Shown here piece after piece: positions 5,529 to 28,257 of a stretch of DNA of 64,000 nucleotides. The stretch spans positions 23,069 through 87,068 of the forward strand of contig JAXLXO010000026.1 in the NCBI GenBank assembly GCA_046327915.1, written 5' to 3'. The DNA comes from Candidatus Binatia bacterium. GTDB lineage: Bacteria; Desulfobacterota; Binatia; UBA12015. Made by a program: the position numbers and the translations under genes. The notes beneath the pieces are model-generated. The model was not told the origin of the DNA. It saw only the letters and a list, made by a program, of their open reading frames with translations, and made no database searches. How positions within the stretch are numbered: the stretch's first letter is position 1; every line of letters starts with the position of its first letter.

Positions 5529-6638
5529 TCACTGCAGCGCGGCCTCCGCCAGATCCGCCGCCGTGGCACCCGCGCCGAGTGCTGCGACGCGCTCGACCTC
5601 GCGCCTGCGGTCGAAGTCGATCGCGACCGCCTCGTCGTGCGCCGCGAGCGCCTCGACGTCGGTGTCGGCGAAGCCGATGATGCCCATGTCGGCGTACGCC
5701 TTCTGGATGCGCGGGCCCCAGAGCCCGATCTCCTTCATCGCCGGCACGATGCGCGAGAACAGGCCCGAGCGATAGACCTTCATCATCTCCGAGCGCTCGA
5801 CGAACTGCTTGCACTCCTCCACCGGCAGCCCGAGCGTCTCCCAGACGTCCTCACCGAGGAAGCGGTCGCGCAGCAGGTAGCAGCCCTCGACCGCGAACTC
5901 CTCGCGCTCGTCGCGCTCCTTCTGGGTGAGCTGCGGGTAGTAGTCGCGCAGCGCGAGCCGTCCGAAGGCGACGTGCCGCGCCTCGTCCTGCATGACGTAC
6001 GCGTTCACCGACGCGGCGAGCGGGTTCTGCGCGTAGTCGCGGATCACGCCGAAGGCGGCGAGCGCGACGCCTTCGATGAGCACCTGCATGCCCAGATACG
6101 TGAAGTCCCAGCGCGACTCGGACAGCGTGTCGCCGATCAGCGACTGCAGGTGCTTGTTGATCGGGTAGATCAGGTCGTACTTCTCGTGCAGCAGCCGCGA
6201 GTACGCCTCGACGTGGCGCGCCTCGTCCATCACCTGCGTCGCGGCGTAGAACTTGGCGTCCATGCTCGGCACCTGCTGGACGATCTTCGCGGTGCAGATC
6301 AGCGCGCCCTGCTCGCCGTGCAGGAACTGCGACAGCTGCCACGACTGGAAGTGGCGACGCAGATTCGCCCGCTCGCCGTCGGTCATCCGGCTCCACATGT
6401 CGGAGCCGTGGATCGGGATCATCTCGTCGGGCAGCTGCGCCGGGTTGTCGTGGTCGAGCTCGGCCGACCAGTCGATGCGCTCCGCCGCGTCCCACTGCAG
6501 GGATTTGCCCTTCGCGTAGAGGTTGAGGAGCTTGTCGCGGCCGTCGTCGTACTCCCAGCGGAAGGTGGTCGCGTAGTCCTGCTTCACGTCCCACTCGATC
6601 GGGCCCCGGTCCGCTGCGTAGCGCTCTTCGGTCGACAT
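5529..6638 (-). CDS. Ferritin-like di-iron carboxylate protein (AurF/N-oxygenase-like family, tentative)
   Basis: Two ExxH motifs (MDEARHVE, QDEARHVA) with spaced acidic residues in a 369-aa protein. SD GGAGGAG lies upstream of the ATG. Confidence 0.7.
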   Translation of the reverse strand: MSTEERYAADRGPIEWDVKQDYATTFRWEYDDGRDKLLNLYAKGKSLQWDAAERIDWSAELDHDNPAQLPDEMIPIHGSDMWSRMTDGERANLRRHFQSWQLSQFLHGEQGALICTAKIVQQVPSMDAKFYAATQVMDEARHVEAYSRLLHEKYDLIYPINKHLQSLIGDTLSESRWDFTYLGMQVLIEGVALAAFGVIRDYAQNPLAASVNAYVMQDEARHVAFGRLALRDYYPQLTQKERDEREEFAVEGCYLLRDRFLGEDVWETLGLPVEECKQFVERSEMMKVYRSGLFSRIVPAMKEIGLWGPRIQKAYADMGIIGFADTDVEALAAHDEAVAIDFDRRREVERVAALGAGATAADLAEAALQ

Positions 6639-6739: not shown

Positions 6740-7963
6740 CTACGCGAGCGATTCCCGGGCTGCGCTCTCGAAGCCACGGCTCGCGGCCCAGGTCAGCCGC
6801 CAGCCGCCGGCGACCGCCAGCATCAGGCTCATGCCCCAGAAGCAGAGCACCGCCAGCACCACGAAGCCCCCGGCGTAGGTCCCGGTGACCTCACGCACGA
6901 GGCCGAGCAGCGACGGCAGGAAGAAGCCGCCGAGCCCGCCCGCCGCGCCGACGAGCCCGGTCACGACGCCGATCTCGCGCTGGAAGCGCAGCGGCACCAG
7001 CTGGAAGACCGAGCCGTTGCCGGCGCCGAGGAGCGCCAGCGCCACCGCGAACAGGGGCGTCGCGAGCCACACCGCCGGCAGCGTCGCGATCGCGAGCAGC
7101 AGCGCCCCGACCAGACCGTAGAGCAGCGACAGCATGCGGATGCCGCCGTGGCGATCGGCGAGCAGGCCGCCGACCGGACGCATGAAGCTGCCGGCGAACA
7201 CGCACAGCGCCGTCAAGTCGCCGGCGACGACCTTGTCGACGCCGTACTGGTCGTGGAAGAAGACGCCGAGGAAGCTCGCGAGGCCGACGAAGCCGCCGAA
7301 GGTGATGCCGTAGAACAGGCAGAACCACAGCGTGTCGATCTCGCGCAGCACCTGCACGTAGTCGCGCAGCGCCTTCGGCGCCGGCTGGCTCGGGCTGTCC
7401 TTCGCGCACAGCAGGAACACGGCTCCGGCCGCCGCCATCGGCAGCATCGCGAGCCCCATCGCCGCGTGCCAGCCCCACGCCGCGGCGAGCCGCGGCATGA
7501 AGAGCGACGCCAGCACCGTTCCCGAGTTGCCCGCACCCGCGATGCCCATGACGAGCCCCTGATGGCGCGGCGGGTACCAGCGCGACGCGAGCGGAAGCGC
7601 CACCGCGAAGCTCGCGCCCGGCACGCCCAGCAGCAGTGCGACCAGCAGCAGGCGCGGCAGCGTGTCGGCGAACTGCCAGCCCAGCAGCAGCGGCACGAAC
7701 GTGAGCGCGATGCCGACGAGGCCCGTCCGGCGCGGCCCGAGATGGTCCGCGAGCGCGCCCAGCACGATGCGGAAGATCGAGCCGCCGAGCAGCGGCGTCG
7801 CGATCAGGAACCCCTTCTGCGTGGCGCTCAGCTGCAGGTCGTCGGCGATGAAGTTGCCGAGCGGCCCGAGCAAGTACCAAATACAGAAGCTGACGTCGAA
7901 GTAGACGAACGCGGCCAGCAGCGTCGGCCAGTGGCCGCTCCTGCGGAATTCGCTGAAGCTCAT
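6740..7963 (-). CDS. narK: MFS nitrate/nitrite transporter (NNP family)
   Basis: 407 aa from ATG 7963 (MSFSEFRRSGHWPTLL...). About 12 hydrophobic segments. Gly/Asn signatures (GIAGAGNSGT, LGAGNGSVFQ). ATGA overlap with the upstream stop. Confidence 0.85.
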   Translation of the reverse strand: MSFSEFRRSGHWPTLLAAFVYFDVSFCIWYLLGPLGNFIADDLQLSATQKGFLIATPLLGGSIFRIVLGALADHLGPRRTGLVGIALTFVPLLLGWQFADTLPRLLLVALLLGVPGASFAVALPLASRWYPPRHQGLVMGIAGAGNSGTVLASLFMPRLAAAWGWHAAMGLAMLPMAAAGAVFLLCAKDSPSQPAPKALRDYVQVLREIDTLWFCLFYGITFGGFVGLASFLGVFFHDQYGVDKVVAGDLTALCVFAGSFMRPVGGLLADRHGGIRMLSLLYGLVGALLLAIATLPAVWLATPLFAVALALLGAGNGSVFQLVPLRFQREIGVVTGLVGAAGGLGGFFLPSLLGLVREVTGTYAGGFVVLAVLCFWGMSLMLAVAGGWRLTWAASRGFESAARESLA

Positions 7964-8433
7964 GCTCTCCTCACGATCGCCGGTGCGAGGCCGCGCCGCG
8001 GCGGTCCGAACAGGACCTCGCCGGTGCGCGCGTCGAATGCGGCATGGTGGCAGGGACACTCGAAACGGGTGCGCTCGGCCGACCACAGAACGGGGCAGCC
8101 GAGGTGCGGACACCTGCGGTCGAACGCGATGGTCGCATCGTCGCCGACGCGCAGCAGCAGAGCCTCGCGGCCGTCGGCGGCGCGCAGCGTGCGCGCCTCG
8201 CCGACCGCCGGCACGTCGCCGTCGTCGAGAACGACCTCGAGCGGCGGCTCGGCGCGCGAGAGTACCCGGCGCGCCGACCACTCACCCCCGACCGCCAGCA
8301 CGGCGGCCGAACCGGCGGCGCAGAGGAAGCGCCGCCGGTCGAGCCGCTGCTCGTCCGCCGCCGCGACGGGAAACGCATCGCCGGTCCGCGGCGGACGCGA
8401 GTCGTCGCCGCCGGTCTTCGTCCTCAGTCGCAC
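7960..8433 (-). CDS. Rieske [2Fe-2S] protein with twin-arginine N-terminus
   Basis: CPHLGC...CPCHHAAF cluster boxes. DRRRFLCAAGSAAVLAVGG Tat-like motif. GTG 8433 is preceded by GGAGGAGG at 4 nt. The start is not certain. Confidence 0.7.
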   Translation of the reverse strand: MRLRTKTGGDDSRPPRTGDAFPVAAADEQRLDRRRFLCAAGSAAVLAVGGEWSARRVLSRAEPPLEVVLDDGDVPAVGEARTLRAADGREALLLRVGDDATIAFDRRCPHLGCPVLWSAERTRFECPCHHAAFDARTGEVLFGPPRRGLAPAIVRRA

Positions 8434-9026
8434 AACGCCTCCTCCAGCTGCAGCTCGGCGCGCGAGCGTGCCGGCACGCTCCACGCGCCGACCTCGATGC
8501 GCGCCGTCGGCGCCGGCACCATGACCGCGTTGCGGGTGGCGACGACGTGCTCGCCGAATGCAAACACGTCGAGCGGACGCGCACGCCGGCGGTCCTGGAC
8601 GTCCTCGTGGGTGCCGTAGAAGAGCGCGCCCGAGGGACACACCGTCGCGCACATCGGCGCGAGCCCGACCGACGTGCGGTCGTGGCAGAGGTCGCACTTC
8701 ATCATCAGCTCGCGCTCGACGTCGATCTTCGGGACGCCGAACGGACACGCGAGCGCGCAGCTGCCGCAACCGATGCAGCGCTCGACCGCCGCCGACAGCA
8801 CGACGCCGTCGGGGTCGGTCTTGATCGCGTCCGCCGGGCAGACGCTCGCGCACGCCGGATCCTCGCAGTGCATGCAGACCGTCGGCGACGTCTGCACGGT
8901 GGTCGCACGCTCGAGGCTGTCGAGGTGGATCATCGAGAAGCCGCCGTGGCCGGGGCACTCGCTGCACGCCTCGACGCAGGCCCGGCAGCCGATGCACCGG
9001 TTGCCGTCAATGAAAAGCTGCTGCAC
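8424..9026 (-). CDS. Four-cluster [4Fe-4S] ferredoxin-type subunit (DmsB/NrfC/HybA-like)
   Basis: Four Cys groups: [43 protein letters not shown]...CATVCP. No signal peptide. Confidence 0.85.
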
Positions 9027-11199
9027 GGGGGGCCTCCAGCTTGTCGATGCGCACCGCTGCCACCTTGAACTCCGGGATGCCGGCGACCGGGTCGTACGCG
9101 CGGTTCGTGAGCAGGTTGGCCGACTGCGCGCCGGGCCAGTGATAGGGAATGAACACGGTGTCGGGGCGGATCGTCGCCACGACGAGAGCGGTGAGCTCCA
9201 GCGCGCCGCGCCGGCTCGACACGCGCACGCGGTCGCCGTCGCGCACGCCCAGCTTCGCGGCGAGCTTCGGGTGCAGCTCGACCTTCGGCTCCGGGTACTG
9301 CTCGACCAGCGGGCCGATGCGGCGCGTCTGCGTGCCCGACAGGAACTGCGAGACCACGCGTCCCGTCGTGAGGAGGATCGGATACTCGTCGTCGGTGGTC
9401 TCGGCGGGCGGCCGGTACTCGACCGCGTGGAACCGCGCGCGTCCGTCGCGGTGCGCGAAGCGGCCGCCCTCGAAGAGCCGCGGCGTGCCCGGATGATCCG
9501 GCGTCGGGCACGGCCAGAACACGCCCATCTGCCGCTCGATGCGCTCCCAGGTGATACCCGCGTAGTCGGCGACGCCGCCCGCCGACACGCGCGCGAGCTC
9601 GGTGAAGATCTCCTCGGGTCCCGCGAAGGCGAAGCGCTCGCCCTGTCCGAGACGGCGCGCGAGATCGCACACGATGCGCCAGTCGGCGCGCGCCTCCCCG
9701 GGCGGGTCGACCGCCTTGCGGATGCGGATCACCCTGCCCTCCGCGCTGGTGACGGTGCCCTCGTCCTCCTCCTGCAGCGAGCCCGGCAGGACGAGGTCCG
9801 CGTGGCGTGCGGTCTCGGACAGGAAGAAGTCGATCGCGGTGTAGAACTCGAGCCGCTCGAGCGCCTCGCGCGTGAACGTCGCGTCGGGCAGCGAGACCAG
9901 CGGGTTGAAGCAGAGCGAGATCAGTCCCCGGATCTCGCCGCGGTGGATCGCCTCCACGATCTGCGGCGCGGTGTAGCCCTTGCCGGGCAGCACGTCGGGC
10001 TCGACGCCCCACATCGCGGCGACGTGCGCACGGTGCGCTGGATTCTCGATGTCGCGCGCGCCGGGCAGCTGGTTGCAGCGCTGTCCGTGCTCGCGTCCGC
10101 CCTGCCCGTTGCCCTGTCCGGTGATCGTCGCGTAGCCGCAGCCGGGCTTGCCGATCCTGCCGGTCGCGAGGACGAGGTTGATGCACGCGAGGACGTTCTC
10201 GACGCCCTTGGTGTGGTGCTCGATGCCGCGCGCGTGCAGCAGAAACGTCCGCGGCGCCTGCACCCACATCGTCGCCGCCTCGACGATGCGCTCGGCCGGA
10301 ATGCCGACCTCGCGCGCGACGCTCTCCGGCGTGTAGCGCTCGACGGTGCGCAGCACCTCGTCGAAGCCGGTGGTGTGCGCGGCGACGAAGGCGTGATCGA
10401 CGCCGCCGAGCCGGATCACGACGTTCAGGATCGCGTTCAGCAGCGCCGAGTCGCGTCCCGGACGCACCGGGAGGTAGAGGTCCGCGGTGCGCGCGATCGG
10501 CGTCAGGCGCGGATCGACGACGACCAGCTTCGCGCCGCGGTCGCGCGCGCGCCAGATGTAGTCGGTGGTGATCGGGCTGCACTCGGAGACGTTCGCGCCC
10601 AGCACCAGGACCAGATCCGTGGACGGGATGTCCGCCCACGGGTTCGCAGCCCGGTCGATGCCGAAGGCCTTCAGGTTCGCGGCCCCGGCCGCGACCATGC
10701 AGAGGCGCCCGTTGTAGTCGATGTGCCGCGTGCCGACCGCGAGGCGCGCGAACTTGCCCATGAGGTACGCCTTCTCGTTGGTGAGCGACGCGCCGGACAG
10801 GACGGCGACCGAGTCCGGTCCGTGACGGTCCTGCAGCCGGCGCACGCGCTCGGCCACGAGGTCGAGCGCCTCGTCCCACGGGATGCGGCCGAAGCCGCCG
10901 CCGGTGCGCACCATCGGCTGCAGCAGGCGGTCCGGATGGTTGTTCTGCAGGTAGCGCTTGACGCCCTTCGGGCAGAGCTTGCCGCCGTTGAACGGAAACT
11001 CCTCCCACGGCTCGACGCCGACCACGCGCTCGTCCCGGACGAGCAGCTTGACGCCGCACTGCTGGCCGCAGAAGCAGCAGTGCGTCTGCACCTTGCGGTC
11101 CGCGTGGGCGCGCGCCGCGAAGCCGCCGGGCGGCTCGTAGGAGCGGTGCGGTCCGTAGCGGTCGACGAGCTCTTCCAGCGGTGCGGTCGGCTTCGCCAT
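9007..11199 (-). CDS. Molybdopterin oxidoreductase, NasA/NarB-type (assimilatory-nitrate-reductase-like catalytic subunit)
   Basis: 730 aa from ATG 11199. N-terminal CxxCxxxC..C motif ([10 protein letters not shown]...KLCPKG). MGD core ([15 protein letters not shown]). No Tat signal and no in-frame TGA. Confidence 0.85.
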
Positions 11200-12233
11200 C
11201 ACGCAGCCCTCCGTGCCGGGTCCGACTCGGCGTGCGTGCCGAGAACGTGCGGGTGGAAGCGCGCGCCGACCAGCGCCGCCTGCGTGGTCGCGAGCCGACG
11301 ACGACGGCAGGCCGGGCACCAGTCGAGCGCGTCCAGCGCAAGGCCGCGCGCCGCGAGCATCGCGCGCACCGCGTCGTGCTGGACGCGCGGCGCGAGCGAT
11401 GCTCCGCAGCCGACGCACCCGACGCGGTCGTCCGAGCGCCGCACCGCGCGCGCACCGAGCTGCAGCGGCCGGATCAGTACGTGATGCAGCTTCGAGAACG
11501 GGATCGCCGCCAGCAGCACGATCACCGCGACCTCGTGCGCGGCGGACGCCACGTCGAAGAGCCGCGGCGCGTGCCGCGTCGCCGGCAAAGCGAGACCGGT
11601 CGCCGCGACGACGAGGAGCAGCACGAGGGGTGCCAGGTGGAACGACGACGTCTCTCCCGGAAGGGCGCGGATGCGAACGCGCCGCACGAGGAAGATCGAG
11701 GCACCGAGCAGCACCGCCACGCCGGCGAGCGCGAGCCCGTGGAACGCGAGCCAGCCGATCGCGCCGTCCACCGCGAAGCGCGCGGCCGGGACGCCGAGCA
11801 CGACGGCGCGGTAGTGCGCAGGACCGTCGGCCGCGAACCTCAGCCAGCCGAACACCAGCGGAACCGTGATCGCGAAGCTCGCGAGCGTGCCGAGCGAGAG
11901 CAGCAGGTGCGCGACCCAGCGCACGCGGGAGCGCCGTGCGACGAAGCGCTGCGCCACCAGGTCCGACGTCGCGGAGCGCAGCACCGCGCGCAGCTCGGCG
12001 GGATGCCGAAGTGCACGCAGGAGCGCGCCGGCGAGAGCGCGCGCGTGGAACGCCGACGGAGGACGCCGCCAGAACGCGCTTGCCCGGAACGCCGCTCCCG
12101 CGAACGCCGCCACGGTCGCACCGAGATAGCCCAGCAGCGCCGGATCGAGTGCCGCGCCGCGCTCCGAGCCGAAGAAGATCGCGAGCAGCAGCAGCGCCGT
12201 CGCGAGCGACGCGTCCCGCACCGGCGCGCTCAT
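11199..12233 (-). CDS. NarI/DsrM-like polytopic membrane protein with C-terminal CxxC..CxxC tail
   Basis: 344 aa from ATG 12233. Six to seven hydrophobic helices carrying His residues. [13 protein letters not shown] motif as in nitrate-reductase-gamma-like cytochromes b. Tail CVGCG...CPAC. ATGA and TGATG overlaps with the neighbours. Confidence 0.6.
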
Positions 12234-15200
12234 GCGCCACCGCCCGGGGCCGTCGCGGCCTCCGCCGCGGTGCAGGCCGACGCGCACGAGCCCGCACGCT
12301 GCAGCTGCTCCGGGGGCGGCAGCTCGACCCAGACGTCGTCGCCACGGAGCTCGACCGGAAACGTGCGGATCGCGTACTGAGGGTCCGCGAGCCCCGCTCC
12401 CGTCCGCAGCGAGAAGGTCTTCTTGTGCATGGGACACGCCACCTTGGGCTCGCCGTCCTGCGTGCCGAGCAGCCCGCGTGCGAGAACCGCGTCGCCGCGG
12501 TGCGGACACGTCGCCTGCGTCGCGTACCAGGCGCCGGCGCTCGCGAAGCGGAAGACGGCGATCTGCACGCCGCCGTGATCGTGATTGACGCCGCCGTCGG
12601 GCGGTACGTCTTCGGCGCGCGCGACGCGCACCCACGTGCGTCCGCCCGCGGGCGGCGCGAGCATGGCGGGACCGGCCGGCGGCGCGGACGGCCAATCCGC
12701 GGGGCGCCGCTGGCCGCGCTCGCGCACGAACGCGACGCGCGGATCCGGCGCGTTGCCGTCCGCGAAGTGCCGGAACGCGGCCCGCTTCGCGGGGTCGCGC
12801 ACGACCTCCGCCCACTCGCACGAGTAGGCGTCGACCAGCAGCTGCATGTCGCGCTCGAGATCCGCGCAGAGTCCGAGCGCGTCGTCGACGATGACGCTCC
12901 TCAGGTACTCGATGCCGCCGTCCATGCGCTCGATCCAGCGCGCGGTCCGCTCGAGCGGGTTCGCGGTCTGGACGTAGTACATGAGGAAGCGGTCGATCAG
13001 CCGGATCAGCGTGTCCTCGTCGAGGTCGGACGCGACCAGATCCGCGTGTCGCGGCTGCGCGCCGCCGTTGCCGCCAAGGTAGAGGTTCCAGCCGGTCTCG
13101 GTCGCGATGACGCCGAAGTCCTTGCTCTGCGCCTCGGCGCACTCGCGGATGCACCCCGACACGGCCGACTTGAGCTTGTGCGGCGCGCGGATGCCGCGGT
13201 ACCGCTCCTCGATGCGGATCGCGAGCGTGGTCGAGTCCTGCACGCCGAAGCGGCACCACGTCGAGCCGACGCAGCTCTTCACCGTCCGCATCGCCTTGCC
13301 GTAGGCGTGTCCGCTCTCGAAGCCGGCCTCGACCAGCGCCTCCCAGATCTCCGGCAGCTGCTCGACGCGCGCACCGAGCAGGTCGATGCGCTGCCCGCCG
13401 GTGATCTTGCAGGCGAGGTCGAACCTCTTCGCGACCTCTGCGATCACCATGAGCTTGTCGGGCGTGATCTCGCCGCCCGGAATGCGCGGAATCACCGAGT
13501 ACGTCCCGCCGCGCTGGATGTTGGCGAGGAAACGGTCGTTGGTGTCCTGGATCGACGCGTGCTGCAGGACGAAGTCGTTCCAGCTGCTGGCGAGGATCGA
13601 CGCGATCGCGGGACGGCACACCTCGCAGCCGGCCCCCGTGCCGTGGCTCGCGAGCAGCTGCTGGAAGCTGCGCACGCGCTTCAACTTGACGATCTGGAAC
13701 AGCTCCTGGCGCGTGAACGCGAAGTGCTCGCACAGGTCGCGGTTGGGCTCGCGCCCCGCACGCGCGAGCTCGGCGTCGAGGATCTGCGCGACCAGGGGGA
13801 CGCAGCCGCCGCAGCCCGTGCCGGCCTTCGTGCACGACTTGACGCCGCCGACGGTCGTCAGCTCCTGCTCCGCGATCGCGGCGCGGATCCGTCCCTTGCT
13901 CACGTTGTTGCACGAGCAGACCTGGGCGTCGTCGCCGAGGCTGCCCGCGACGCCCGCCGCGCCGACGCCCCCGCTGCTGCCGAACAGCAGCTCGTGCGAG
14001 CGCTCGGGCAGCGGCATGCCGCTCTTCGACAGCGCCAGCAGCGATGCGTACGGCCCCGCGTCGCCGACGAGAATGCCGCCCAGCAGCCGCTGCCGGTCGT
14101 CGCTGAGGATCAGCTTCTGGTAGACGCCGCGCGCGCGGTCCTCGTAGACCACGCGGTGCACGCTGGTGCCCGCCGACTCGTCGGCGAAGCAGCCGCCGAA
14201 GCTCGCGACGTCGACGCCGAGCAGCTTGAGCTTCGTCGACAGGTCGGCGCCGGTGAAGCGGCGGTCCTCGCCGCAGAAGCGCGCGGCGAGCGTCTCCGCC
14301 ATCTCGTAGCCGGGTCCGACGAGGCCGTAGATCATGCCGCCGACCAGCGCACACTCGCCGATCGCGAAGATGCGCGGGTCCGCGGTCGCGAGCGTCGGAT
14401 CGACGACGATGCCACCGCGCTCGCCGACCGCGAGGCCGGCGCCGCGCGCGAGCTCGTCGCGCGGCGTGATGCCGGCCGAGACGACGACCATGTCGACCGC
14501 GATCGTGACGCCGTCACGGAAGCGCAGCGCCGCGACCGGTGAGGCGGCATCGCTCGCGACGGCGCCGTCGATCGCCTCGGTCTGCGCCGCGACGTGAACG
14601 TGCACGCCGAGGCTCTCGATCGCGCGGCGCAGCACGTCGCCGCCGCCGCCGTCCACCTGACGCGGCATGAGGCGCGGCGCCGCCTCGACGACGTGCGTCT
14701 CGATGCCCATGTCGAGCAGCGCCTTCGCCGCCTCGAGCCCGAGCAGCCCGCCGCCGATCACCGCGGCGCTGCGAGCACGCGCGCCCCACGCGCGAATCGC
14801 CTCGAGATCCTCGATCGTGCGGTACGCGAACACGCCCGGTCGCGCGATTCCGGGCAGCGGTGGCACGAACGGCGCGGAGCCGGTCGCGAGCACGAGCGCG
14901 TCGTAGCGCCGGGTGCGCCCCGTCGCGGTGACCACCGTGCGCGCCGCGCGGTCGATCTCCGTCACGCGCTCCGCGAGGTGAAGCGCGATGCCCTGCTCCG
15001 CGTACCAGCCGCGCGTCTCGAGCTGCAGGTCGTCGGCGGTCTTGCCCGCGAAGAAGGCGCTCAGGTGCACGCGGTCGTACGCCGGCCGCGGCTCCTCGCC
15101 GATGCAGACGAGGCGGAAGCTCTCGCCGCTGTCGCGCTCGGTGAGCAGCTCGCAGAAGCGATGCCCGACCATGCCGTCGCCGACCACGACCACCGTGCGC

Positions 15201-15241
15201 CGTTCGTCGCCGTCGCCGTCGTCCCGCTCGCTCATCGTCAC
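12230..15241 (-). CDS. nirB: NAD(P)H nitrite reductase large subunit fused to a NirD-like Rieske domain (NirB-NirD)
   Basis: Rossmann motifs ([26 protein letters not shown]). BFD-like Cys pairs. Sirohaem/FeS motifs ([22 protein letters not shown]). C-terminal CPHRG...CPMHKK domain. Start is GTG 15241 or ATG 15235. Confidence 0.9.
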
Positions 15242-15246
15242 CCCGG

Positions 15247-15291
15247 AAAAAAGAAACGGCGCCCCTGGCGCGACGAGGAGGCCGTTCGTCG
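15247..15291 (-). terminator. Terminator/attenuator-like element immediately 5' of nirBD
   Basis: Minus-strand GC-rich alternative pairings (CGACGA/TCGTCG, GCGCC-AGG-GGCGC, AACGGC/GCCGTT) are followed by TTTCTTTTTT (15247-15256), 6-12 nt before the start codon. Confidence 0.45.
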
Positions 15292-15587: not shown

Positions 15588-17162
15588 TCAGAACGAGAGG
15601 ATGCCCTCCAGATACCCGTAGTTGCCGTCGCTGCCGACGAAGTTCTGATCGATCACGCCCTGTCCCCACGCGTGCGCGTAGAAGGCGTTCATCTTGAAGA
15701 ACGACGTCGGCCGGATCTCGAAGTTGACGTGCGCCAGGTAGGCCAGCTCGTAGCGGCCCTTCGCCGGGACGCCGCCGAAGCCGAAGAAGTCGTTCTTCGT
15801 GGCGCCGCCGCCGAAGTACGCGAGGTCCTGCGAGCTGTTGACGCGCAGCCAGTGGAAGTCCGTGCGCACCGTGACCATCGGCAGCGGGTCCATCAGCGCC
15901 TGCACGAAGACGTCCTGGTTGTTCATCATGTTGTAGAACGGGAACTGCGCGTACAGCCACGCCGTCGGCAGCATCTGGAAGAACGTCTGATGCCGGTCGT
16001 CGTTCGGGTTCGGGTCACCCGACGCGCTGTCGATGCCGAGCCGCAGCCACGGCCGCGACCACAGCTCGGCGAGCTGGTAGCCCGCCTCGACGCCGTAGGC
16101 CCACGCGGTGTGGTCCTGGTTCTGGTAGTTGCCCATCTGGCCGTAGCCGTACGCCAGGCCGTCGGCGAAGCCCGGGCCGAGCTCCTCGACGTGGATCACG
16201 TTCGCGCCGACGGTGTGGATCGTCGACGACTCGCCCTTCGCCGCTTGACGCACGGGCAGCGGACGATTGTCGGTGTAAACGACGTCGCGGTAGTCGTGGT
16301 AGACGAACCAGAACAGGCGTCCGATCGTGTTGCCGAGCTGCGGTGAGTCGGGCAGGTTCAGCGCGACGCCGCCGAGGTCGATGTCGAGCTCGCGGTTCGC
16401 GTCGACCTCGTAGCCGCCGTAGGTCGGGCGGAAGCCGAAGCCGGTGACGTTGATCAGGTCGTTGCCGAAGCCGACCTGGCCGCCGTCGAAGCTGCGGCCG
16501 ACGTGCGTGTAGTCGAACGGCCCGATCAGGCGCTGCCCGATGCGGTTCGCCTGCAGCCACTTCAGGTTGGGCTGCTTCGCCGCCACGTCGACGCCGTCGT
16601 AGTAGAGCTGGCGCCCGCCCTTGAGGAACAGGCCGTCGAGACCGAACAGGCTCTTCGTCTGCGCCCACGCATTGCGCAGGATCACGCCGTTCTGCGTGTG
16701 GCTCATCGTGTTGGCGTAGTACGTCCCGCCGACGCCGACCGCGCCCGACGGCACGTTGCCGAGCGTCGAGTCCTGCACCTGGACGAACATCTCGTAGGGC
16801 GCGCGCGTGACGCGGACGCCGACCTGCAGCTTGTTGCCGACGAAGTTGTAGCGCGAGTCCGGCGTCGGCGAGTCGGAAGGCGGCTGGAACCAGTCGACGA
16901 ACTCGGCGCGGAAGCGGTCGAAGATCTCGAGCCGGATCCTGCTGTCCCACGGACCGTCGGTCTCGATCCGCGGCGCCGCCGACGCCGCAGCCGGCGCCGC
17001 CGGCGCTGCGGCTGGCGCTGCCGCCCCGGCCCCGGAGCTCTGCGCCGACGAAACCGGCGGCAGCACGAGCAACGACAGCGACGTCAAGCACACAGCGGAA
17101 ACGATCGCGCGACGCCGCGGCGACGCTCCCATGAGGACACCTCCTCCCCTTCGGCGAATCAT
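15588..17162 (-). CDS. Outer-membrane beta-barrel porin, alginate-export (AlgE-like) family
   Basis: Signal peptide (...LVLPPVSSAQS), Ala/Pro linker, alternating beta-strand pattern and aromatic C-terminus (...GYLEGILSF). An alternative start at 17132 is possible. Confidence 0.7.
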   Translation of the reverse strand: MIRRRGGGVLMGASPRRRAIVSAVCLTSLSLLVLPPVSSAQSSGAGAAAPAAAPAAPAAASAAPRIETDGPWDSRIRLEIFDRFRAEFVDWFQPPSDSPTPDSRYNFVGNKLQVGVRVTRAPYEMFVQVQDSTLGNVPSGAVGVGGTYYANTMSHTQNGVILRNAWAQTKSLFGLDGLFLKGGRQLYYDGVDVAAKQPNLKWLQANRIGQRLIGPFDYTHVGRSFDGGQVGFGNDLINVTGFGFRPTYGGYEVDANRELDIDLGGVALNLPDSPQLGNTIGRLFWFVYHDYRDVVYTDNRPLPVRQAAKGESSTIHTVGANVIHVEELGPGFADGLAYGYGQMGNYQNQDHTAWAYGVEAGYQLAELWSRPWLRLGIDSASGDPNPNDDRHQTFFQMLPTAWLYAQFPFYNMMNNQDVFVQALMDPLPMVTVRTDFHWLRVNSSQDLAYFGGGATKNDFFGFGGVPAKGRYELAYLAHVNFEIRPTSFFKMNAFYAHAWGQGVIDQNFVGSDGNYGYLEGILSF

Positions 17163-17187: not shown

Positions 17188-18873
17188 TCAAGGGGCCTTG
17201 TGATCGCTCTCCTCGGCCGTCTGCCCCGCAGCGCGCGCGCCCGAGCTGCCGTAGCGCTCCGCCATCGACCGCTTGATCGCCTGCATCTGCTCCTCGGCGC
17301 CCTTCTGGAACCAGGCGTGCTCGGGTCGCGCGAGGATCTCGTCGATCACCGCGTTCGCACGCGCAGCGGCCTCGCCCTGCCCGTTCTCGGCGGCGTGCTT
17401 CGTGATCTCGCGCGCCTGCGGGATCAGCCCCATGTAGAAGCGGTCGGCGACCTCGAACATGCCGTGCCACTGCGTGTAGTCGGGTGCCATCATCGAGGCA
17501 CCCATGCGGGCGCGGCGTCCCTCGTGATGCCAGAGGTAGAACCACGTCCACTCGATCTCCTCGTCGTACTGCGTCGGCGTGAGGAGCTTCTCCTTCGCGA
17601 GCGTGCTCATGATCTGCTGGCCCGGCTTGGCGAACTTCTCGTTGTAGAGCAGCAGCAGACTGTCGTACTGCGAGTAGAACGCGTTGACGTAATCCGGGGT
17701 GTGGCAGTGACCGCACACCTCCTTCATCCGCGTGCGCTTCTGCTCCCAGGTGTCGGTGATCTTCTCCCGACGCTCGGCGGGATCGGTCGCGGTCACGATC
17801 TTGCCGCTGGCGTCGGTGTCCATGAGCAGGCTGACCGGCGGACGGTTGGTCCACGACAGCCGGCTGCCGGGATCGTGCGTGATCTTCCGTCCGTTGCGCG
17901 TGTTCGCCGACATGTGACAGGTCGCGCACGTCGGGGCCGCGGAGTAGTCCTCGCCGAGCACCCACTTCTCCGCGTTCAGGTTCATCTTGTCGTGCAGGTC
18001 GCGGAAGGCGACGCCGTGCTTCGACTCCTCGTAGATCTCCTTCTGCGGATGATCCGGACCGAGGTGGCACTTGCCGCAGTTCTCGGGCTGGCGCGCGCGC
18101 CGCGGCGAGAAGTCGTGGCGGCTGTGGCACGCCGAGCACGAGCCGCGCGAGCCGTCGAGGTTCAGGCGCCCGATGCCGGTGTTCGGCCACGTCTCGCGGT
18201 CGAAGAGCGGACGGCCCTTGTCGTCGCGCAGGATGTTCGCCGCGGCGTCCTTGTCGGTCGGGATGCCCTCGGCGTTCGGCTTGAGCTGGTCCACGTTGAT
18301 CGAGCCGCCGTTCTTCGAGCGCAACGCGACCTTGCTGCCGTGACACTGCTGGCAGCCCGAGAACGCGGCGGCGAGCCCGTTGACCTGGGTTACCTCCATG
18401 CCGGGAGTCTGCCCGTGCGGATTGAACGGCTGCCGCGCCCCCTCGACGTTCTCGGCGAGGAAGTTGTCGAGCGAGGCGAGGATGTTGCCCGCCGCCGCAT
18501 GATGGCTGCGCTCGAACTCCTGCGACACGTCGGCGTGACAGCGCGCGCAATCACGCGGCGTCGTGACGGTCGCGATCAGCTGCCCGTAGTGCTCGAAGGC
18601 GTCGGCGTCCTCCTTCGACGCCTGATGACACTCGACGCACGCGACGCCGCTGCGCGCGTGCTTGCTGCCCTCCCACTGCGCGACGATGCCGGGGTTGCTC
18701 TCGTTGTGGCAGCGGACGCACTCCTGCGACGCCGCCGGCACGGCGATGTGCGGACTCTCGAGCCCGGCCTCCTCGGCGCGGCGGATGACTTCCCGGCGCT
18801 GCACGTAGACGAGGGAAAGAAGAAAGATCAGCGAGGCGCCGATCAGCACCCAGCGCTTCTGGTTCAGCGTCAT
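17188..18873 (-). CDS. Octahaem hydroxylamine-oxidoreductase (HAO)-family cytochrome c with N-terminal membrane anchor
   Basis: Eight CxxCH motifs (CVRCH, CVECH, CARCH, CQQCH, CSACH, CGKCH, CATCH, CGHCH). HAO-like CGKCHLGPDHPQKEIYEESKHG and WHHEGRRARMGASMMAPDYTQWHG. ATG 18873 lies 1 nt after the cytochrome b stop. Confidence 0.85.
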   Translation of the reverse strand: MTLNQKRWVLIGASLIFLLSLVYVQRREVIRRAEEAGLESPHIAVPAASQECVRCHNESNPGIVAQWEGSKHARSGVACVECHQASKEDADAFEHYGQLIATVTTPRDCARCHADVSQEFERSHHAAAGNILASLDNFLAENVEGARQPFNPHGQTPGMEVTQVNGLAAAFSGCQQCHGSKVALRSKNGGSINVDQLKPNAEGIPTDKDAAANILRDDKGRPLFDRETWPNTGIGRLNLDGSRGSCSACHSRHDFSPRRARQPENCGKCHLGPDHPQKEIYEESKHGVAFRDLHDKMNLNAEKWVLGEDYSAAPTCATCHMSANTRNGRKITHDPGSRLSWTNRPPVSLLMDTDASGKIVTATDPAERREKITDTWEQKRTRMKEVCGHCHTPDYVNAFYSQYDSLLLLYNEKFAKPGQQIMSTLAKEKLLTPTQYDEEIEWTWFYLWHHEGRRARMGASMMAPDYTQWHGMFEVADRFYMGLIPQAREITKHAAENGQGEAAARANAVIDEILARPEHAWFQKGAEEQMQAIKRSMAERYGSSGARAAGQTAEESDHKAP

Positions 18874-18874
18874 G

Positions 18875-19927
18875 TCAATGCTCCACCGCGGCTTCCCAGA
18901 TCGTGAGGGCCACGATCGCGAGCACGCCCAACATTCCGATCCACACGCTCGCTTCGCTGAAGCGCGTGTGGCGTCGGATCCACGCATCGATGAACGGCCA
19001 GGCGAACATCACGAACACGATGAACCCGGTCGAGAGGACCGCGACGGTCCCGGAGAAGAGCTTCAGCCAGCGAAAGGCGACGTAGAAGAACCACTCCGGC
19101 TTGATCACCTCGGGCGTCGAGAGCGGGTCCGCCTGCGGCCCGAGGTGCGCCGGCAGCGCCGTCGCGAGCACCGACAGCAGCACCATGAGCAGGATGCCGA
19201 TGGTGAGCTCGGTCATGAGGTGGTCCGGCACGAAGTTGAAGTGTCCGCTCGCGGTCCTGTCGTCGTCGCCCTCGAAGCGGAACTCGGTCACGCCCTGGAT
19301 GCGGATGATCGCGATGTGGATCGCGAGCAGCAGCACCAGCAGGACGGGCAGCACCGCCGCGTGCAGCACGAAGAAGCGCGGCAGCGTGTGCTCGTTGTAG
19401 ACCTCGCCGCCGAGCAGCATCTCCTTCATCGGCTCGCCCACGATCGGCACGCTGGCCGCGATGTTCGCGCCGACCGTGGCGCCCCAGTAGCTGAGCTGCT
19501 CGAAGACCAGGCTGTAGCCGGTGAAGCCGAGCACCAGCGTGCACAGCAGGATGCACATGCCGACCATCCAGTTGATCTCGCGCGGCTTGCGGTACGCGCC
19601 GGTGAAGAAGACGCGCATCTGGTGCAGGATCACCGCGGCGATCATCAGCGTCGCGCCCCACTTGTGGACGCTGCGGATGAACCAGCCGTACGCGGCTTCC
19701 TCGCTGATGTAGCGCACCGACTGGTACGCGCTGGTCGACGACGGCTGGTAGTAGACCGCGAGCAGGATGCCGGTCGCGATCTGGACGATGAAGAGGTAGG
19801 CCGGCGTGCCGCCGAGCGCGAACCACCAGCGCTTCAGGTGATTCGGCACCGGCTCGTTGGTGAGCTCGCGAAGCTCCGCGCCCGAGACCGGAACCCGTTC
19901 CTGGAACCACGCGGCGACGCGGCTCAT
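18875..19927 (-). CDS. Cytochrome b (fused b6/subunit IV type), Rieske/cyt b module 2
   Basis: 350 aa from ATG 19927. His-bearing helices (HKWGATLMIAAVILHQMRVFFTGAYRKPRE; FFVLHAAVLPVLLVLLLAIHI). PEWFFY motif. Confidence 0.85.
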   Translation of the reverse strand: MSRVAAWFQERVPVSGAELRELTNEPVPNHLKRWWFALGGTPAYLFIVQIATGILLAVYYQPSSTSAYQSVRYISEEAAYGWFIRSVHKWGATLMIAAVILHQMRVFFTGAYRKPREINWMVGMCILLCTLVLGFTGYSLVFEQLSYWGATVGANIAASVPIVGEPMKEMLLGGEVYNEHTLPRFFVLHAAVLPVLLVLLLAIHIAIIRIQGVTEFRFEGDDDRTASGHFNFVPDHLMTELTIGILLMVLLSVLATALPAHLGPQADPLSTPEVIKPEWFFYVAFRWLKLFSGTVAVLSTGFIVFVMFAWPFIDAWIRRHTRFSEASVWIGMLGVLAIVALTIWEAAVEH

Positions 19928-20460
19928 CACACGCCCTGCGTGCGGCCGGGACGCGAGACCAGCGCCTCGGTCGGCACGTTGATGAACACCAGCTGGCCGC
20001 GTACCTCGAGCGGATAGCGCGGCAGCGGCGTGTTGCCTTCCTTCGGAGGTCCGCCGGTGGGCTGGCCCTCGGGGTTGAACGTGCCGTTGTGGCACGGGCA
20101 GACGTACTGGTCGCGGTGCGCTTCCCAGTGCACCTGACAGCCGAGGTGCGGACACGTGCTCGACAGCGCGACGAAGTCGGCCGCGGTGGAGCCCTGACCG
20201 AGCCGCGTCACGTTGATGGTCTGGCCGGTCGGCGCCGTCCAGCGCAGCGAGCCTCCCGCGGGCAGCTGGTCGAGCCGCGCGACGTACGTCCACGCGCGGC
20301 GCGCCGGTCCGGCCGGGTAGAGAAAGCGCCCTGCGTAGGCGGCGAACGTGCCGTACGCGGCGGCGAGCGCACCCACCAGGCCGAGGTTCAGCATGCGCGC
20401 GAGCAGATCGCGGCGCTCCGGCACGGGCGCTGCCGGCCCTTCGACGAGTCCCTCCTCCAT
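19927..20460 (-). CDS. Rieske [2Fe-2S] subunit, module 2
   Basis: CPHLGCQVHW...CPCHNGTF boxes. N-terminal hydrophobic anchor. ATG 20460 with SD GAGAGGGGGAA. TGATG overlap with the cytochrome b gene. Confidence 0.8.
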   Translation of the reverse strand: MEEGLVEGPAAPVPERRDLLARMLNLGLVGALAAAYGTFAAYAGRFLYPAGPARRAWTYVARLDQLPAGGSLRWTAPTGQTINVTRLGQGSTAADFVALSSTCPHLGCQVHWEAHRDQYVCPCHNGTFNPEGQPTGGPPKEGNTPLPRYPLEVRGQLVFINVPTEALVSRPGRTQGV

Positions 20461-20532
20461 CGTTCCCCCTCTCGCCTGATGGCGATCCGTGTGCGCACGA
20501 GCCGCACCACGAATCATGCTCTCGCCGTCACA

Positions 20533-21117
20533 TCAAGAATGGACGCGCTCCCGAAGCAGATCGACGGCCAGCGCGACGTGCGAATCCGGTGCGAGATCCG
20601 CGGCTTCGCCGAGGCGCGCGACCAGCGGAGCGAGGTGCGCAGCCACGAACGCGGCACGCGCCGCCGCAACGGTGTGCGCCGCCTCCGCGTCCCCGTTCGC
20701 CCAGGCGAGCGACTCCTTGAGCTCCAGAAATCCGACGAACCCCGCCTCCACGGCCACGTGGTCGGGCGGGTCCTCGGCACGGGGAGCGTAGCCGAACGCC
20801 TCGTAGAAGCGCGCCAGCTCCGAGAACATCCAGCCCGGATCGCCGAACCCCAGCGCACTCGCCTCGCGCGGCGACAGCGGCGCGCCCGGACCGAGCAGCG
20901 CGTGGTACTCGCCCTCGGTGATGCCGCGCGCGGCGGCGACGACCGCGCGCAGCGGCGGATCGTCGATCTCGTCCGCGAGGCGGTCGATCTCGGTGCTCCA
21001 GCCCGCGCGCGGACGCTCGAGGAGAAGTCCGAGCAGGCGCCAGTGCGCCGCGCGGGCGATTCCGTCGGCGACGCGGGTGGTGGCGCCCGCGTCGTGTCCG
21101 TTGCCTGCCGTGCTCAT
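20533..21117 (-). CDS. TorD/NarJ-family redox-enzyme maturation chaperone (delta)
   Basis: 194 aa. Core FYEAFGYAPRAEDPPDHVAVEAGFVGFL is typical of the family. ATGA overlap with the gamma gene. Confidence 0.7.
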   Translation of the reverse strand: MSTAGNGHDAGATTRVADGIARAAHWRLLGLLLERPRAGWSTEIDRLADEIDDPPLRAVVAAARGITEGEYHALLGPGAPLSPREASALGFGDPGWMFSELARFYEAFGYAPRAEDPPDHVAVEAGFVGFLELKESLAWANGDAEAAHTVAAARAAFVAAHLAPLVARLGEAADLAPDSHVALAVDLLRERVHS

Positions 21118-21968: not shown

Positions 21969-21979
21969 GGCACACCTCC

Positions 21980-23109
<1,130 letters not shown>

Positions 23110-23110
<1 letters not shown>

Positions 23111-28247: not shown

Positions 28248-28257
28248 GGCCGTTCCC

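Follow-up and report, generated by a model that had tools for sequence, protein, structure and literature searches.

The locus described here raises the question of whether a nitrate reductase that resembles the assimilatory NasC enzymes may be built as a membrane complex that draws its electrons from the quinone pool. It is a set of four genes (hereafter the quartet) within a 64,000-nucleotide stretch of DNA (hereafter the window) from a Candidatus Binatia bacterium (GenBank assembly GCA_046327915.1, contig JAXLXO010000026.1, positions 23,069 to 87,068). The quartet encodes a NarI-like membrane protein, a catalytic subunit of the molybdenum bis(pyranopterin guanine dinucleotide) (Mo-bisPGD) type, an iron-sulfur (FeS) protein with four predicted clusters, and a Rieske protein. 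An earlier note on this DNA had proposed a quinol-linked hybrid enzyme rather than a classical Nas, possibly exported as a hitch-hiker on the twin-arginine translocation (Tat) signal of the Rieske subunit. The first half of this proposal holds up, as the NasC-like subunit is always encoded together with the membrane, four-cluster and twin-arginine Rieske subunits. The export half appears less likely in the light of the links to nitrate importers and the logic of the NarI family. With good confidence, the product can be regarded as a membrane-bound nitrate reductase of hybrid subunit composition that is linked to the quinone pool. A fuller reading is favoured with modest confidence, in which the products of the four genes assemble in the membrane into a single quinol-linked nitrate reductase of hybrid build, its active site facing the cytoplasm and the Rieske domain alone lying outside. 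The assembly of the four proteins, their binding of haem and metals, the topology, the source of electrons and the conservation of energy are all deduced from sequences and predicted structures.

The coupled operon and its four subunits

The window has a G+C content of about 71%, and long spurious open reading frames arise on both of its strands. Codon-position G+C and domain searches identify the minus strand as coding for 6740-15235. Candidate genes on the plus strand, for example 7962-9068 and 8674-11484, were rejected as Arg/Ala-rich artefacts of the 71% GC. The operon on the minus strand begins with a nirB-nirD fusion (15235..12230, 1001 amino acids). It is followed by the quartet, consisting of the membrane protein (12233..11199, 344 amino acids, six transmembrane helices, NarI-like), the Mo-bisPGD subunit (11199..9007, 730 amino acids, NasC-like), the four-cluster [4Fe-4S] protein (9026..8424, 200 amino acids, Fer4_11) and the Rieske protein (8433..7960, 157 amino acids, PF00355). 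The last gene is narK (7963..6740, 407 amino acids), which encodes a transporter of the NarK family within the major facilitator superfamily (MFS). Read directly from the sequence, all five junctions overlap: by ATGA between nirBD and the membrane gene, by TGATG between the membrane and Mo genes, by 20 nucleotides between the Mo and FeS genes, by 10 nucleotides between the FeS and Rieske genes, and by ATGA again between the Rieske gene and narK. The gene set is a translationally coupled operon. The four overlap-coupled genes downstream of nirBD, with narK attached through ATGA, are thus present at 7960-12233 as the earlier note had described, on the minus strand. The motifs that it quoted were all recovered as well, namely the 13-residue motif of the membrane protein, its CxxC..CxxC tail and the Rieske sequence DRRRFLCAAGSAAV. 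The operon holds no module specific to the nitrate reductase that would supply it with electrons from NAD(P)H, ferredoxin or flavodoxin, and profile searches of the operon found neither a NarJ-like gene nor a chaperone of the NapD/TorD type.

The identity of the Mo subunit was judged by the scores of curated hidden Markov models. The best model is NasC (NF047855) with 796.7 bits, which is below its equivalog cut-off of 1100, and no equivalog cut-off is reached. Lower scores were obtained with Fdh-alpha (617 bits), haloarchaeal NasA (421 bits), two NapA models (274 and 259 bits against cut-offs of 904 and 931), arsenite_ox_L, the AioA model (152.6 bits against 359), and NarG (61.5 bits against 1084). 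In other lineages, the NasC model gives 872 bits in Brevibacillus, 856 in Paenibacillus and 787 in Deinococcus, all below 1100. The Pfam domains are Molybdop_Fe4S4 (PF04879, 51.4 bits), Molybdopterin and Molydop_binding. An N-terminal four-Cys motif for a [4Fe-4S] cluster, FS0, is formed by C41/C42-x-C44-x3-C48 (11053-11082, minus strand). The predicted Mo ligand is Cys167 in GRLCM (10696-10710, minus strand), which is the Cys-Met of nitrate reductases and not the Sec/Cys-His of formate dehydrogenases. Solved relatives of this subunit are cytoplasmic formate dehydrogenases and monomeric NapA. A formate dehydrogenase identity, suggested by the best PDB matches, was rejected on account of the Cys-Met ligand motif, the higher score for NasC than for Fdh-alpha, and the nitrate-related contexts.

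The Mo subunit has no RR pair in its first 60 residues and no hydrophobic N-terminus; the absence of a signal peptide from both the Mo and the FeS protein, as claimed earlier, is borne out by the lack of these two features. The MAKP.. start is common to the Deinococcus orthologue, where a real intergenic gap precedes the gene. A longer Mo reading frame, extended upstream to 12345, was rejected, since it is an out-of-frame read of the membrane gene and the MAKP start matches Deinococcus. Residues 1-39 (11083-11199) form a conserved N-terminal extension before FS0, with the pattern L..L...YGP.L.Y.PPGG(F/W) and no Tat motif. This extension is common to Binatia, Deinococcus, Holophagaceae and the metagenomic scaffold L033, and it is absent in Bacillales.

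The FeS subunit belongs to the DmsB/FdnH/NrfC/HybA class and has neither a signal peptide nor a transmembrane helix. Its four Cys groups for 4x[4Fe-4S] lie at residues 11-21, 51-64, 84-94 and 111-131. Fer4_11 is matched at 74.4 bits against a cut-off of 26.2, and the best PDB match is FdnH (1kqf_B, E 2.7e-27). No single equivalog cut-off is reached; the narH model, for instance, gives 40.1 bits against 524.

The membrane subunit passes the cut-off of PF02665 (Nitrate_red_gam) marginally, with 24.0 bits against 22.9 and over residues 162-219 only. The same profile is matched at E<=0.01 by 18 of the 31 members of the membrane family. Additionally, the QmoC, TcuB and TmcC models give partial matches of 23-29 bits over residues 102-264, the core from the third to the sixth transmembrane helix. 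Hydropathy and Lys/Arg positive-inside counts predict six transmembrane helices with both termini inside, and natural fusions of NarK, with its 12 helices, to the membrane subunit agree with this topology. The protein differs from NarI, which has five transmembrane helices and no extra domain, in its sixth helix and in a tail of about 95 residues with four cysteines (the Cys4 tail). An AlphaFold2 model was obtained with a mean predicted local distance difference test (pLDDT) of 83.7. In a Foldseek search of the PDB with this model, the top eight hits are all NarI chains with probabilities of 0.97-1.0, but with E values of about 0.03-0.1 and target-normalised TM-scores of 0.41-0.46. A profile search of the PDB with the membrane family gave no match even at E<=10.

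Conservation points to four candidate haem ligands, encoded on the minus strand: H109 (11907-11909), H165 (11739-11741), H233 (11535-11537) and H251 (11481-11483). H233 and H251 lie 18 residues apart in the last transmembrane helix, a spacing that we take to be that of NarI H187/H205. The 13-residue motif corresponds to residues 244-256 (11466-11504) and contains H251. All four histidines are invariant in an alignment of 22 Binatia-type sequences, and three of them (H109, H233 and H251) remain so when 31 sequences from several phyla are compared. The doubt voiced earlier, that the haem-ligand histidines might be lost on alignment, is answered by these four invariant positions within the Binatia clade and three across phyla. 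Position 165 is His in Binatia, Deinococcus and Holophagaceae and Asn (F-N-x-L-N) in Bacillales and many others, and the 31-sequence alignment offers no obvious replacement His in the members with Asn. Lineages may therefore differ in their number of haems, and in Bacillales the Rieske cluster itself might be the outer-face redox centre. H109 and H165, as a candidate second His pair, sit on different helices, unlike the pair in NarI helix II. According to the predicted topology, H165 and H233 would be near the outer face and H109 and H251 near the inner face.

The Cys4 tail, C273xxC276 ... C306xxC309 (11307..11417, minus strand), follows the last transmembrane helix and is predicted to be cytoplasmic. 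It is a putative metal-binding element of rubredoxin-like or zinc-ribbon-like type. The first cysteine, C273, is invariant, and the other three (C276, C306 and C309) reach a conservation of at least 90% across phyla. The tail is Arg-rich, with 16 Lys+Arg, and the AlphaFold2 model places two short strand pairs and helices there. The strongest conservation in the whole subunit is found in an outer-face segment, PLVFGW..F..Y.

The Rieske protein carries a cluster domain of the bc/b6f/AioB type (PF00355, 43.6 bits). Its best PDB match by sequence is AioB (8r3a_B, E 1.7e-11), followed by b6f PetC. In the AlphaFold2 model (pLDDT 87.4), one continuous helix spans residues 25-60 and a beta domain residues 65-156; the continuous helix suggests an uncleaved anchor. 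Foldseek returned full-length b6f PetC first and then the soluble domains of AioB, with root-mean-square deviations of 1.5-2.8 A. The curated models are all below cut-off, with 43.7 bits against 275 for QcrA, 40.2 against 154 and 250 for PetC, and 37.5 against 95.65 for arsenite_ox_S (TIGR02694). The cluster boxes CPHLGC ... CPCHH (8044..8112, minus strand) include the two extra cysteines that form a disulfide in Rieske proteins of the bc1/b6f type, and both are kept in all orthologues seen. The Ser and Tyr of the bc1/b6f box CPCHGSxY are known from the bc1 mutagenesis literature to raise the potential of the cluster. With CPCHHAAF in its place, the cluster is, by analogy, probably of low potential, suited to (mena)quinol and compatible with electron transfer to b haems.

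A twin-arginine motif and a hydrophobic segment, D32-RRRFLCAAGSAAVLAVGG-EW52 (8278..8340, minus strand), form a predicted Tat signal or signal-anchor near the N-terminus of the Rieske protein. The sequence DRRRFLCAAGSAAV begins at residue 32, and D-R33-R34-R-F-L-C, followed by 15 uncharged residues, fits a Tat pattern of the (S/T)-R-R-x-F-L-K-like kind. Equivalent motifs are RRGFMK/RRSFMK in Bacillales, SRREFTRFL in Deinococcus, SRREFARFL in Holophagaceae, NRRAFL in L031 and NRKQF in L033. The Pfam TAT_signal profile does not match the window protein at E<=0.01, and the Paenibacillus orthologue scores 14.2 bits against a cut-off of 22.7. The start of the gene had been named as a weak point, since a start downstream of the arginines would leave a soluble, NasG-like protein. 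It is placed upstream of them by several observations. A Shine-Dalgarno sequence, GGAGGAGG, precedes the start GTG 8433, and residues F21, P22, E28 and D32-R-R-R-F-L37 are invariant in 27 database orthologues. Moreover, RR is found in 15 of 16 orthologues derived from loci, the exception (L024) being frameshifted, and those with an ATG start begin upstream of RR. The twin-arginine N-terminus is therefore translated and under selection. GTG 8301, the next and only internal in-frame start, was rejected because it falls inside the hydrophobic segment. Residues 21-31 (8341-8373) are unusually conserved for the n-region of a Tat signal (F21, P22 and E28; also D32), and a similar aromatic-Pro-Val element occurs in Holophagaceae (AFPVD) and L033 (QYPVN). 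The conserved N-tail hints at a cytoplasmic contact or a chaperone site.

The flanking genes of the operon could be assigned as well. The nirBD product scores 1040 bits with TIGR02374 (NirB) and 94.6 bits with TIGR02378 (NirD), both above cut-off, and carries the Pfam domains Pyr_redox_2, Fer2_BFD, NIR_SIR and, as its C-terminal NirD part, Rieske_2. The NirD boxes, CPHRGD.. and CPMH, are without the two extra cysteines present in the downstream Rieske protein. NarK scores 287.7 bits with TIGR00886, below the cut-off of 311.7, and 141.8 bits with MFS_1. Just upstream of nirBD lies a terminator-like hairpin with a T-run (15259..15271, minus strand), a consensus match only, which is probably the end of the preceding transcription unit; the region contains 2 such sites, about as many as the 2.2 that chance alone would give.

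Occurrence and genomic contexts

Genome contigs were scanned with peptide patterns of the Binatia clade, and the 25 loci found, mostly in metagenome-assembled genomes of Candidatus Binatia, are biased toward that clade. The order nirBD-membrane-Mo-FeS-Rieske(-narK) is kept in all 25 of these Binatia-type loci wherever the contig reaches. This gene order is not due to chance. The synteny search that had been recommended for the quartet thus extended it to every Binatia-type locus and also to other phyla. A family restricted to Binatia was rejected after a tblastn search of a plasmid collection with the Rieske protein found quartets in Brevibacillus and Deinococcus. Altogether, the quartet also occurs in Brevibacillus, Paenibacillus, Bacillus, Deinococcus, Holophagaceae and two metagenomic lineages, and the same four-gene set is present in at least four phyla, cultured Bacillales included. 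Identities to the window proteins in other lineages are 48-60% for the Mo subunit, 48-57% for the FeS subunit, 35-37% for the Rieske protein and 29-32% for the membrane subunit. An exhaustive profile search with the membrane family gave 845 clusters (at 50% identity) at E<=1e-3 and 341 at E<=1e-10. A search with the Brevibacillus protein gave 845 matches, and the best 120 of these 845 are mostly from cultured Paenibacillus, Bacillus, Cytobacillus and Metabacillus.

Outside Binatia, the quartet has neighbours of a respiratory kind (Fnr, NreABC-like, NsrR-like, Hcp, Hmp) in some loci and of an assimilatory kind (NrtABC-like, NirA-like) in others, and nirBD is absent beside it in Brevibacillus, Paenibacillus, Bacillus, Deinococcus and Holophagaceae. 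The Brevibacillus laterosporus quartet adjoins a NarU-like NarK (464 bits) and a Crp/Fnr-like gene. In Paenibacillus mucilaginosus, the quartet stands amid genes for Hmp, two Crp/Fnr proteins, PFL, a hemerythrin, Hcp and an NreABC-like set, and in Bacillus sp. FJAT-18017 it is followed by an NreABC-like set. The quartet on the Deinococcus plasmid is followed by a DUF6755 peptide with two transmembrane helices and then by a NarK-family MFS transporter. In Holophagaceae, it comes after an Rrf2 regulator and before DUF6755 and two MFS genes. On scaffold L033, it is located between an NrtABC-like ABC transporter and a CysJ-like/NirA-like pair. This pair (L033 11422-15029) replaces nirBD and comprises a diflavin reductase with Flavodoxin_1, FAD_binding_1 and NAD_binding_1 domains and a sirohaem protein of the NirA/CysI-like kind; judged by its domains, it is a different assimilatory pairing. 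The substrate is assigned as nitrate because of GRLCM, the NasC model as the best match and the nitrate-related neighbours, which are nirBD and narK in Binatia, NreABC-like, Fnr, Hcp and Hmp in Bacillales, and NrtABC-like and NirA-like proteins in L033.

Homologues of the membrane protein are nearly all unnamed, and the unfused ones of Deinococcus, Holophagaceae, Binatia and several Bacillales are annotated as 'MFS transporter'. Natural fusions with a NarK-family MFS domain at the N-terminus of the membrane subunit were found (P0376, P0402, P0409, P0483/P0518 and L031 8001-10490), one of them followed by the Mo, FeS and Rieske genes. The 'MFS transporter' misannotation probably arose from such fusions.

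Some small genes near the quartet were also observed. A peptide with two transmembrane helices follows the Rieske gene in Deinococcus, Holophagaceae, Bacillales and L031 (L027 9246-9587; L032 11509-11718; L028 14359-14547; L030 14369-14569; L031 13931-14149). It is DUF6755 in Deinococcus and Holophagaceae, has no significant Pfam match in Bacillales, and is absent from the window, where narK overlaps the Rieske stop. Two soluble open reading frames of about 90-115 amino acids without a Pfam match are likewise conserved in Bacillales and may be assembly factors. Neither chaperone nor cytochrome domains were found in the small open reading frames after the Bacillales Rieske gene.

Sidedness, electron path and competing explanations

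In the favoured reading, the NasC-type Mo subunit and the four-cluster FeS subunit would lie on the cytoplasmic face and dock on the NarI-like cytochrome b, beside the proximal haem (H109/H251) and the Cys4 tail. The Rieske protein would be inserted by Tat with its N-terminal helix retained as a membrane anchor, and its disulfide-stabilised [2Fe-2S] domain would stand on the outer face beside the distal haem site (H165/H233). Quinol would be oxidised at an outer-face, Qo-like site made up of the Rieske cluster and the conserved PLVFGW loop region. The electrons would then cross the membrane inward through the haem(s), possibly the Cys4 centre, the 4x[4Fe-4S] chain, FS0 and Mo-Cys167 to nitrate. 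Such an inward electron flow would form a Nar-like redox loop in which energy is conserved. NarK would import nitrate and the co-transcribed NirBD would reduce nitrite to ammonium, so that nitrate assimilation or ammonification would spend no NAD(P)H or ferredoxin on its first step.

A cytoplasmic active site is suggested by three lines of evidence. Firstly, the quartet is linked to three kinds of nitrate importer, which are separate NarK, fused NarK and an NrtABC-like ABC system; a NarU-like antiporter beside it makes sense only if nitrate is reduced inside. Secondly, the Mo and FeS subunits both lack a signal, and the other members of the NasC clade are cytoplasmic. Thirdly, the proximal His pair and the Cys4 tail are kept on that side, in keeping with NarI-family logic. 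Characterised proteins of this family (NarI, HdrE, DsrM, TmcC, HmcE, QmoC, TcuB) wire the quinone pool or periplasmic carriers to cytoplasmic FeS partners. An outer-face Rieske domain is supported because RRxF is conserved across the sampled phyla (RK in one lineage) and because of the long N-terminal helix, the PetC-like fold and the disulfide cysteines. A Qo-like site would suit the outer face, since PLVFGW..F..Y and the Rieske domain with its disulfide cysteines are both predicted there.

Several points weigh against this reading. We infer the subunit contacts and the sidedness, and the similarity to NarI is weak (24 bits, Foldseek E of about 0.03, TM-score of about 0.45 and an empty PDB profile search). 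A two-haem wire is not assured throughout the family, as H165 is replaced by Asn in Bacillales and many others. NarI proteins of the Nar, Dsr or Hdr type do not require a Rieske centre, and we know of no characterised precedent for a Rieske protein feeding a b-haem chain. For the Rieske domain, AioB is as close a match as PetC, and AioB docks directly on a Mo subunit in the periplasm. Furthermore, no transporter is found within 10 kb of the Paenibacillus and Bacillus quartets, and the transporter argument is not decisive because NarK and NrtABC systems can carry nitrite too.

The strongest competitor is a periplasmic enzyme, which is considered unlikely. Here the Mo, FeS and Rieske subunits would assemble in the cytoplasm and be exported together on the Rieske signal as in AioAB, held at the membrane by the Rieske helix. 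The NarI-like protein would oxidise quinol and pass electrons to the Rieske, FeS and Mo subunits in turn, and NarK or NrtABC would import nitrite for NirBD. The sole Tat-type signal of the set does lie on the Rieske protein and is conserved across phyla, and the soluble Rieske domain has its best PDB sequence match in AioB, on which it superposes at 1.5-2.8 A. The nearest solved relatives of the FeS subunit include exported proteins of the FdnH, NrfC and HybA types, which are also signal-less or hitch-hiking, and the order FeS-Rieske with its 10-nucleotide overlap suggests direct partners. Additionally, the haloarchaeal periplasmic nitrate reductase pNar has been proposed to work with a Rieske/cytochrome b module. 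However, the repeated links to importers, including NarK fusions and NarU-like antiporters, do not fit this picture, as Nap operons are not known to carry them. The conserved cytoplasmic Cys4 tail and the proximal-haem His pair would be left partnerless, and a transmembrane haem pair feeding an outer-face acceptor at +420 mV would waste or consume proton-motive force. The characterised enzymes of the NasC/NasA/NarB clade are all cytoplasmic, NapA has its own Tat signal, and the operon contains no NapD/TorD-type chaperone.

A second alternative keeps the complex and its sidedness and changes the donor, and it is judged improbable. In this case, the Rieske protein would be the entry point for extracytoplasmic carriers such as cytochrome c, a cupredoxin or a bc complex, and the NarI-like protein would be a pure transmembrane wire, as TmcC and HmcE are in sulfate reducers. 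In Tmc, Hmc and Dsr, NarI-like subunits do provide the link between redox proteins of the periplasm and FeS proteins of the cytoplasm. The window also encodes multihaem cytochromes c, together with a separate Rieske/cytochrome b module, immediately upstream. Nitrate reduction by Streptomyces Nar1 is reported to need the bcc-aa3 supercomplex (PMC7931247). Against such carriers, none of the lineages examined has a cytochrome c gene that travels with the quartet. The CPCHHAAF cluster is also probably of low potential and suited to (mena)quinol. Inward transfer from carriers at about +250 mV to nitrate would leave little driving force against the membrane potential.

Least probable of all is an ordinary soluble Nas, in which a NasG-like cytoplasmic Rieske protein with a vestigial Tat-like N-terminus and the FeS protein would relay NADH electrons from NirB to the Mo subunit while the membrane protein served as a transport or sensing accessory. 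In favour of this reading, every Binatia locus does have nirBD next to the quartet, and the membrane subunit is fused to NarK in some organisms. A Rieske-type protein, NasG, mediates between NasB and NasC in Paracoccus, and cytoplasmic NarG carries a remnant Tat motif. However, the quartet stands without nirBD in the five other groups listed above, and NirB here already contains a NirD Rieske domain. The Tat motif shows no degradation from phylum to phylum, and the helix behind it is long enough to span the membrane. The two invariant disulfide cysteines are typical of extracytoplasmic Rieske proteins, and the invariant histidines at NarI-like positions together with the Cys4 tail argue for a redox role.

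The surroundings of the operon are described here as observations in their own right. Upstream of nirBD, the minus strand carries a second redox island at 17188-32266. It comprises genes for a GltD-like NAD(P)-binding FeS flavoprotein (30296-32266), a fused cytochrome b6/ExtP and ExtQ-like cytochrome b (28258-30198), a multi/dihaem cytochrome c (26577-28247), a type-II DMSO-reductase-family alpha subunit of 1232 amino acids (23110-26808; TIGR03479, 307 bits; NarG/Nxr/Ebd-like) and its beta subunit (21980-23140). These are followed by a chaperone-like gene (20533-21975), a second Rieske gene (19927-20517) and a gene for an HAO/HDH-like multihaem cytochrome c (17188-18987), all on the minus strand. 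The island resembles anammox/Nitrospira-style Rieske/cytochrome b modules with NXR or periplasmic Nar. Between it and nirBD lies a gene for an outer-membrane porin of the Alginate_exp type (15588-17162, minus strand). A porin of the same Pfam family is encoded within the nitrate-transporter cluster of L033 (2490-3746), which adjoins the quartet there, and this porin type may be a nitrate/nitrite porin. Just downstream of narK, a gene for an AurF-like di-iron N-oxygenase is found (5529-6638, minus strand; PF11583, 63 bits).

Significance and comparison with known systems

The literature searched, which leaves subscription journals outside its scope, contains no description of the quartet architecture apart from one remark. 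In Bacillus bataviensis, nasC was reported to be linked to an iron-sulfur protein and a second Rieske protein, and an alternative assimilatory system was suggested (Heylen & Keltjens 2012, PMC3475470). The arrangement of nasC, FeS and Rieske genes was said to be common to other Bacillus species (PMC3475470). Judged by its published description, this cluster is probably the same system; neither a membrane subunit nor a Tat motif nor a link to quinol, however, appears in that description. The Archaeoglobus 'novel nitrate reductase', the Caldithrix Nap with Rieske/cytochrome b and the phylogeny of Campylobacter jejuni Nap were considered and set aside as different systems. The earlier concern that the quartet might be a known, characterised Nas variant is thus not borne out by this literature, in which no equivalent was found. 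Within the same scope, the quartet represents a Mo-bisPGD nitrate reductase with a previously undescribed combination of subunits, which is widespread and present in cultured bacteria.

More tentatively, the quartet could be a fourth architectural class beside Nar, Nap and Nas. In this class, a Tat-inserted, b6f-like Rieske protein and a NarI-like cytochrome b would form a new Qo-like module that drives a cytoplasmic NasC-type enzyme with conservation of energy, and it would be widespread in Bacillales, Deinococcus, Acidobacteriota and Binatia. Conceivably, the members of this class now stand in databases as 'assimilatory NasC' together with 'hypothetical protein' or 'MFS transporter'. Many of the genes that now bear the label 'NasC' are probably part of a membrane-bound enzyme, linked to quinol, that has so far gone unrecognised.

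These possibilities have consequences for gene surveys and for bioenergetics. Surveys count NasC-like genes as assimilatory, soluble and dependent on NAD(P)H or ferredoxin, and nitrogen-cycle inferences drawn from such counts would need revision if a large subfamily proves to be bound to the membrane and linked to quinol. The Bacillales quartet adjoins anaerobic and nitric oxide-stress regulators (Fnr, NreABC-like, Hcp, Hmp). Nitrate assimilation could then conserve energy in some lineages. Moreover, a Rieske protein paired with a cytochrome b of the NarI type, not the bc type, would extend the known quinol-oxidising modules. The analysis also exposes the propagated 'MFS transporter' misannotation of the membrane subunit. 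Cultured and tractable carriers, Brevibacillus laterosporus and Paenibacillus mucilaginosus among them, make the system testable.

Compared with known systems, the quartet shares most of its plan with NarGHI and NarK: a Mo-bisPGD catalytic subunit, a four-cluster FeS subunit, a NarI-family cytochrome b and the linkage to NarK. The His pair of the last helix, 18 residues apart in a PF(S/T)(K/R)L.H-type motif, is a further likeness, and the outcome is likely the same as in NarGHI, with quinol oxidised outside and nitrate reduced inside. In contrast to NarGHI, the catalytic subunit of the quartet has a Cys ligand and falls within the NasC/NapA/Fdh clade, the FeS subunit is shorter with 200 amino acids instead of about 510, an extra Tat-type Rieske protein is present, NarJ is missing, and the membrane subunit has six transmembrane helices and a Cys4 tail.

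The resemblance to NasC of the Bacillus subtilis type, NasA and NarB lies in the best-scoring model, the N-terminal [4Fe-4S] motif, the Cys-Met and the co-operonic nirBD and nitrate transporter. These enzymes differ from the quartet, which has no NasB-like diaphorase, no signature of ferredoxin or flavodoxin dependence and no C-terminal [2Fe-2S] domain, and whose Mo subunit is always accompanied by membrane, FeS and Rieske subunits. AioAB and IdrAB likewise combine a Mo-bisPGD enzyme with a small Rieske protein that bears the only Tat signal, and their Rieske proteins are close in fold and sequence. AioA, however, has a [3Fe-4S] cluster and no protein ligand to Mo, whereas FS0 with four Cys and Cys167 are found here, and Aio is without a four-cluster subunit and a cytochrome b.

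With the bc1 and b6f complexes and the haloarchaeal pNar-NarBC system, the quartet shares an anchored Tat-type Rieske protein, the CxHxGC/CxCH boxes, the disulfide cysteines, a GPP 'Pro loop' and a b-type cytochrome partner. It is distinguished from them by a partner that is a NarI-type and not a bc-type cytochrome b, by the lack of cytochrome c1 or f, and by CPCHHAAF for CPCHGSxY. Finally, DsrMK, HdrDE, TmcABCD, HmcA-F, QmoC and TcuB resemble the quartet in the core from the third to the sixth transmembrane helix, which matches the QmoC, TcuB and TmcC models. In QmoC and TcuB, an FeS domain is fused to the membrane domain; the fused domain of the quartet differs from theirs in being a C-terminal 4-Cys tail and not an N-terminal ferredoxin or CCG domain. 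Unlike in all of these systems, the cytoplasmic partner of the NarI-like protein in the quartet is a molybdoenzyme.

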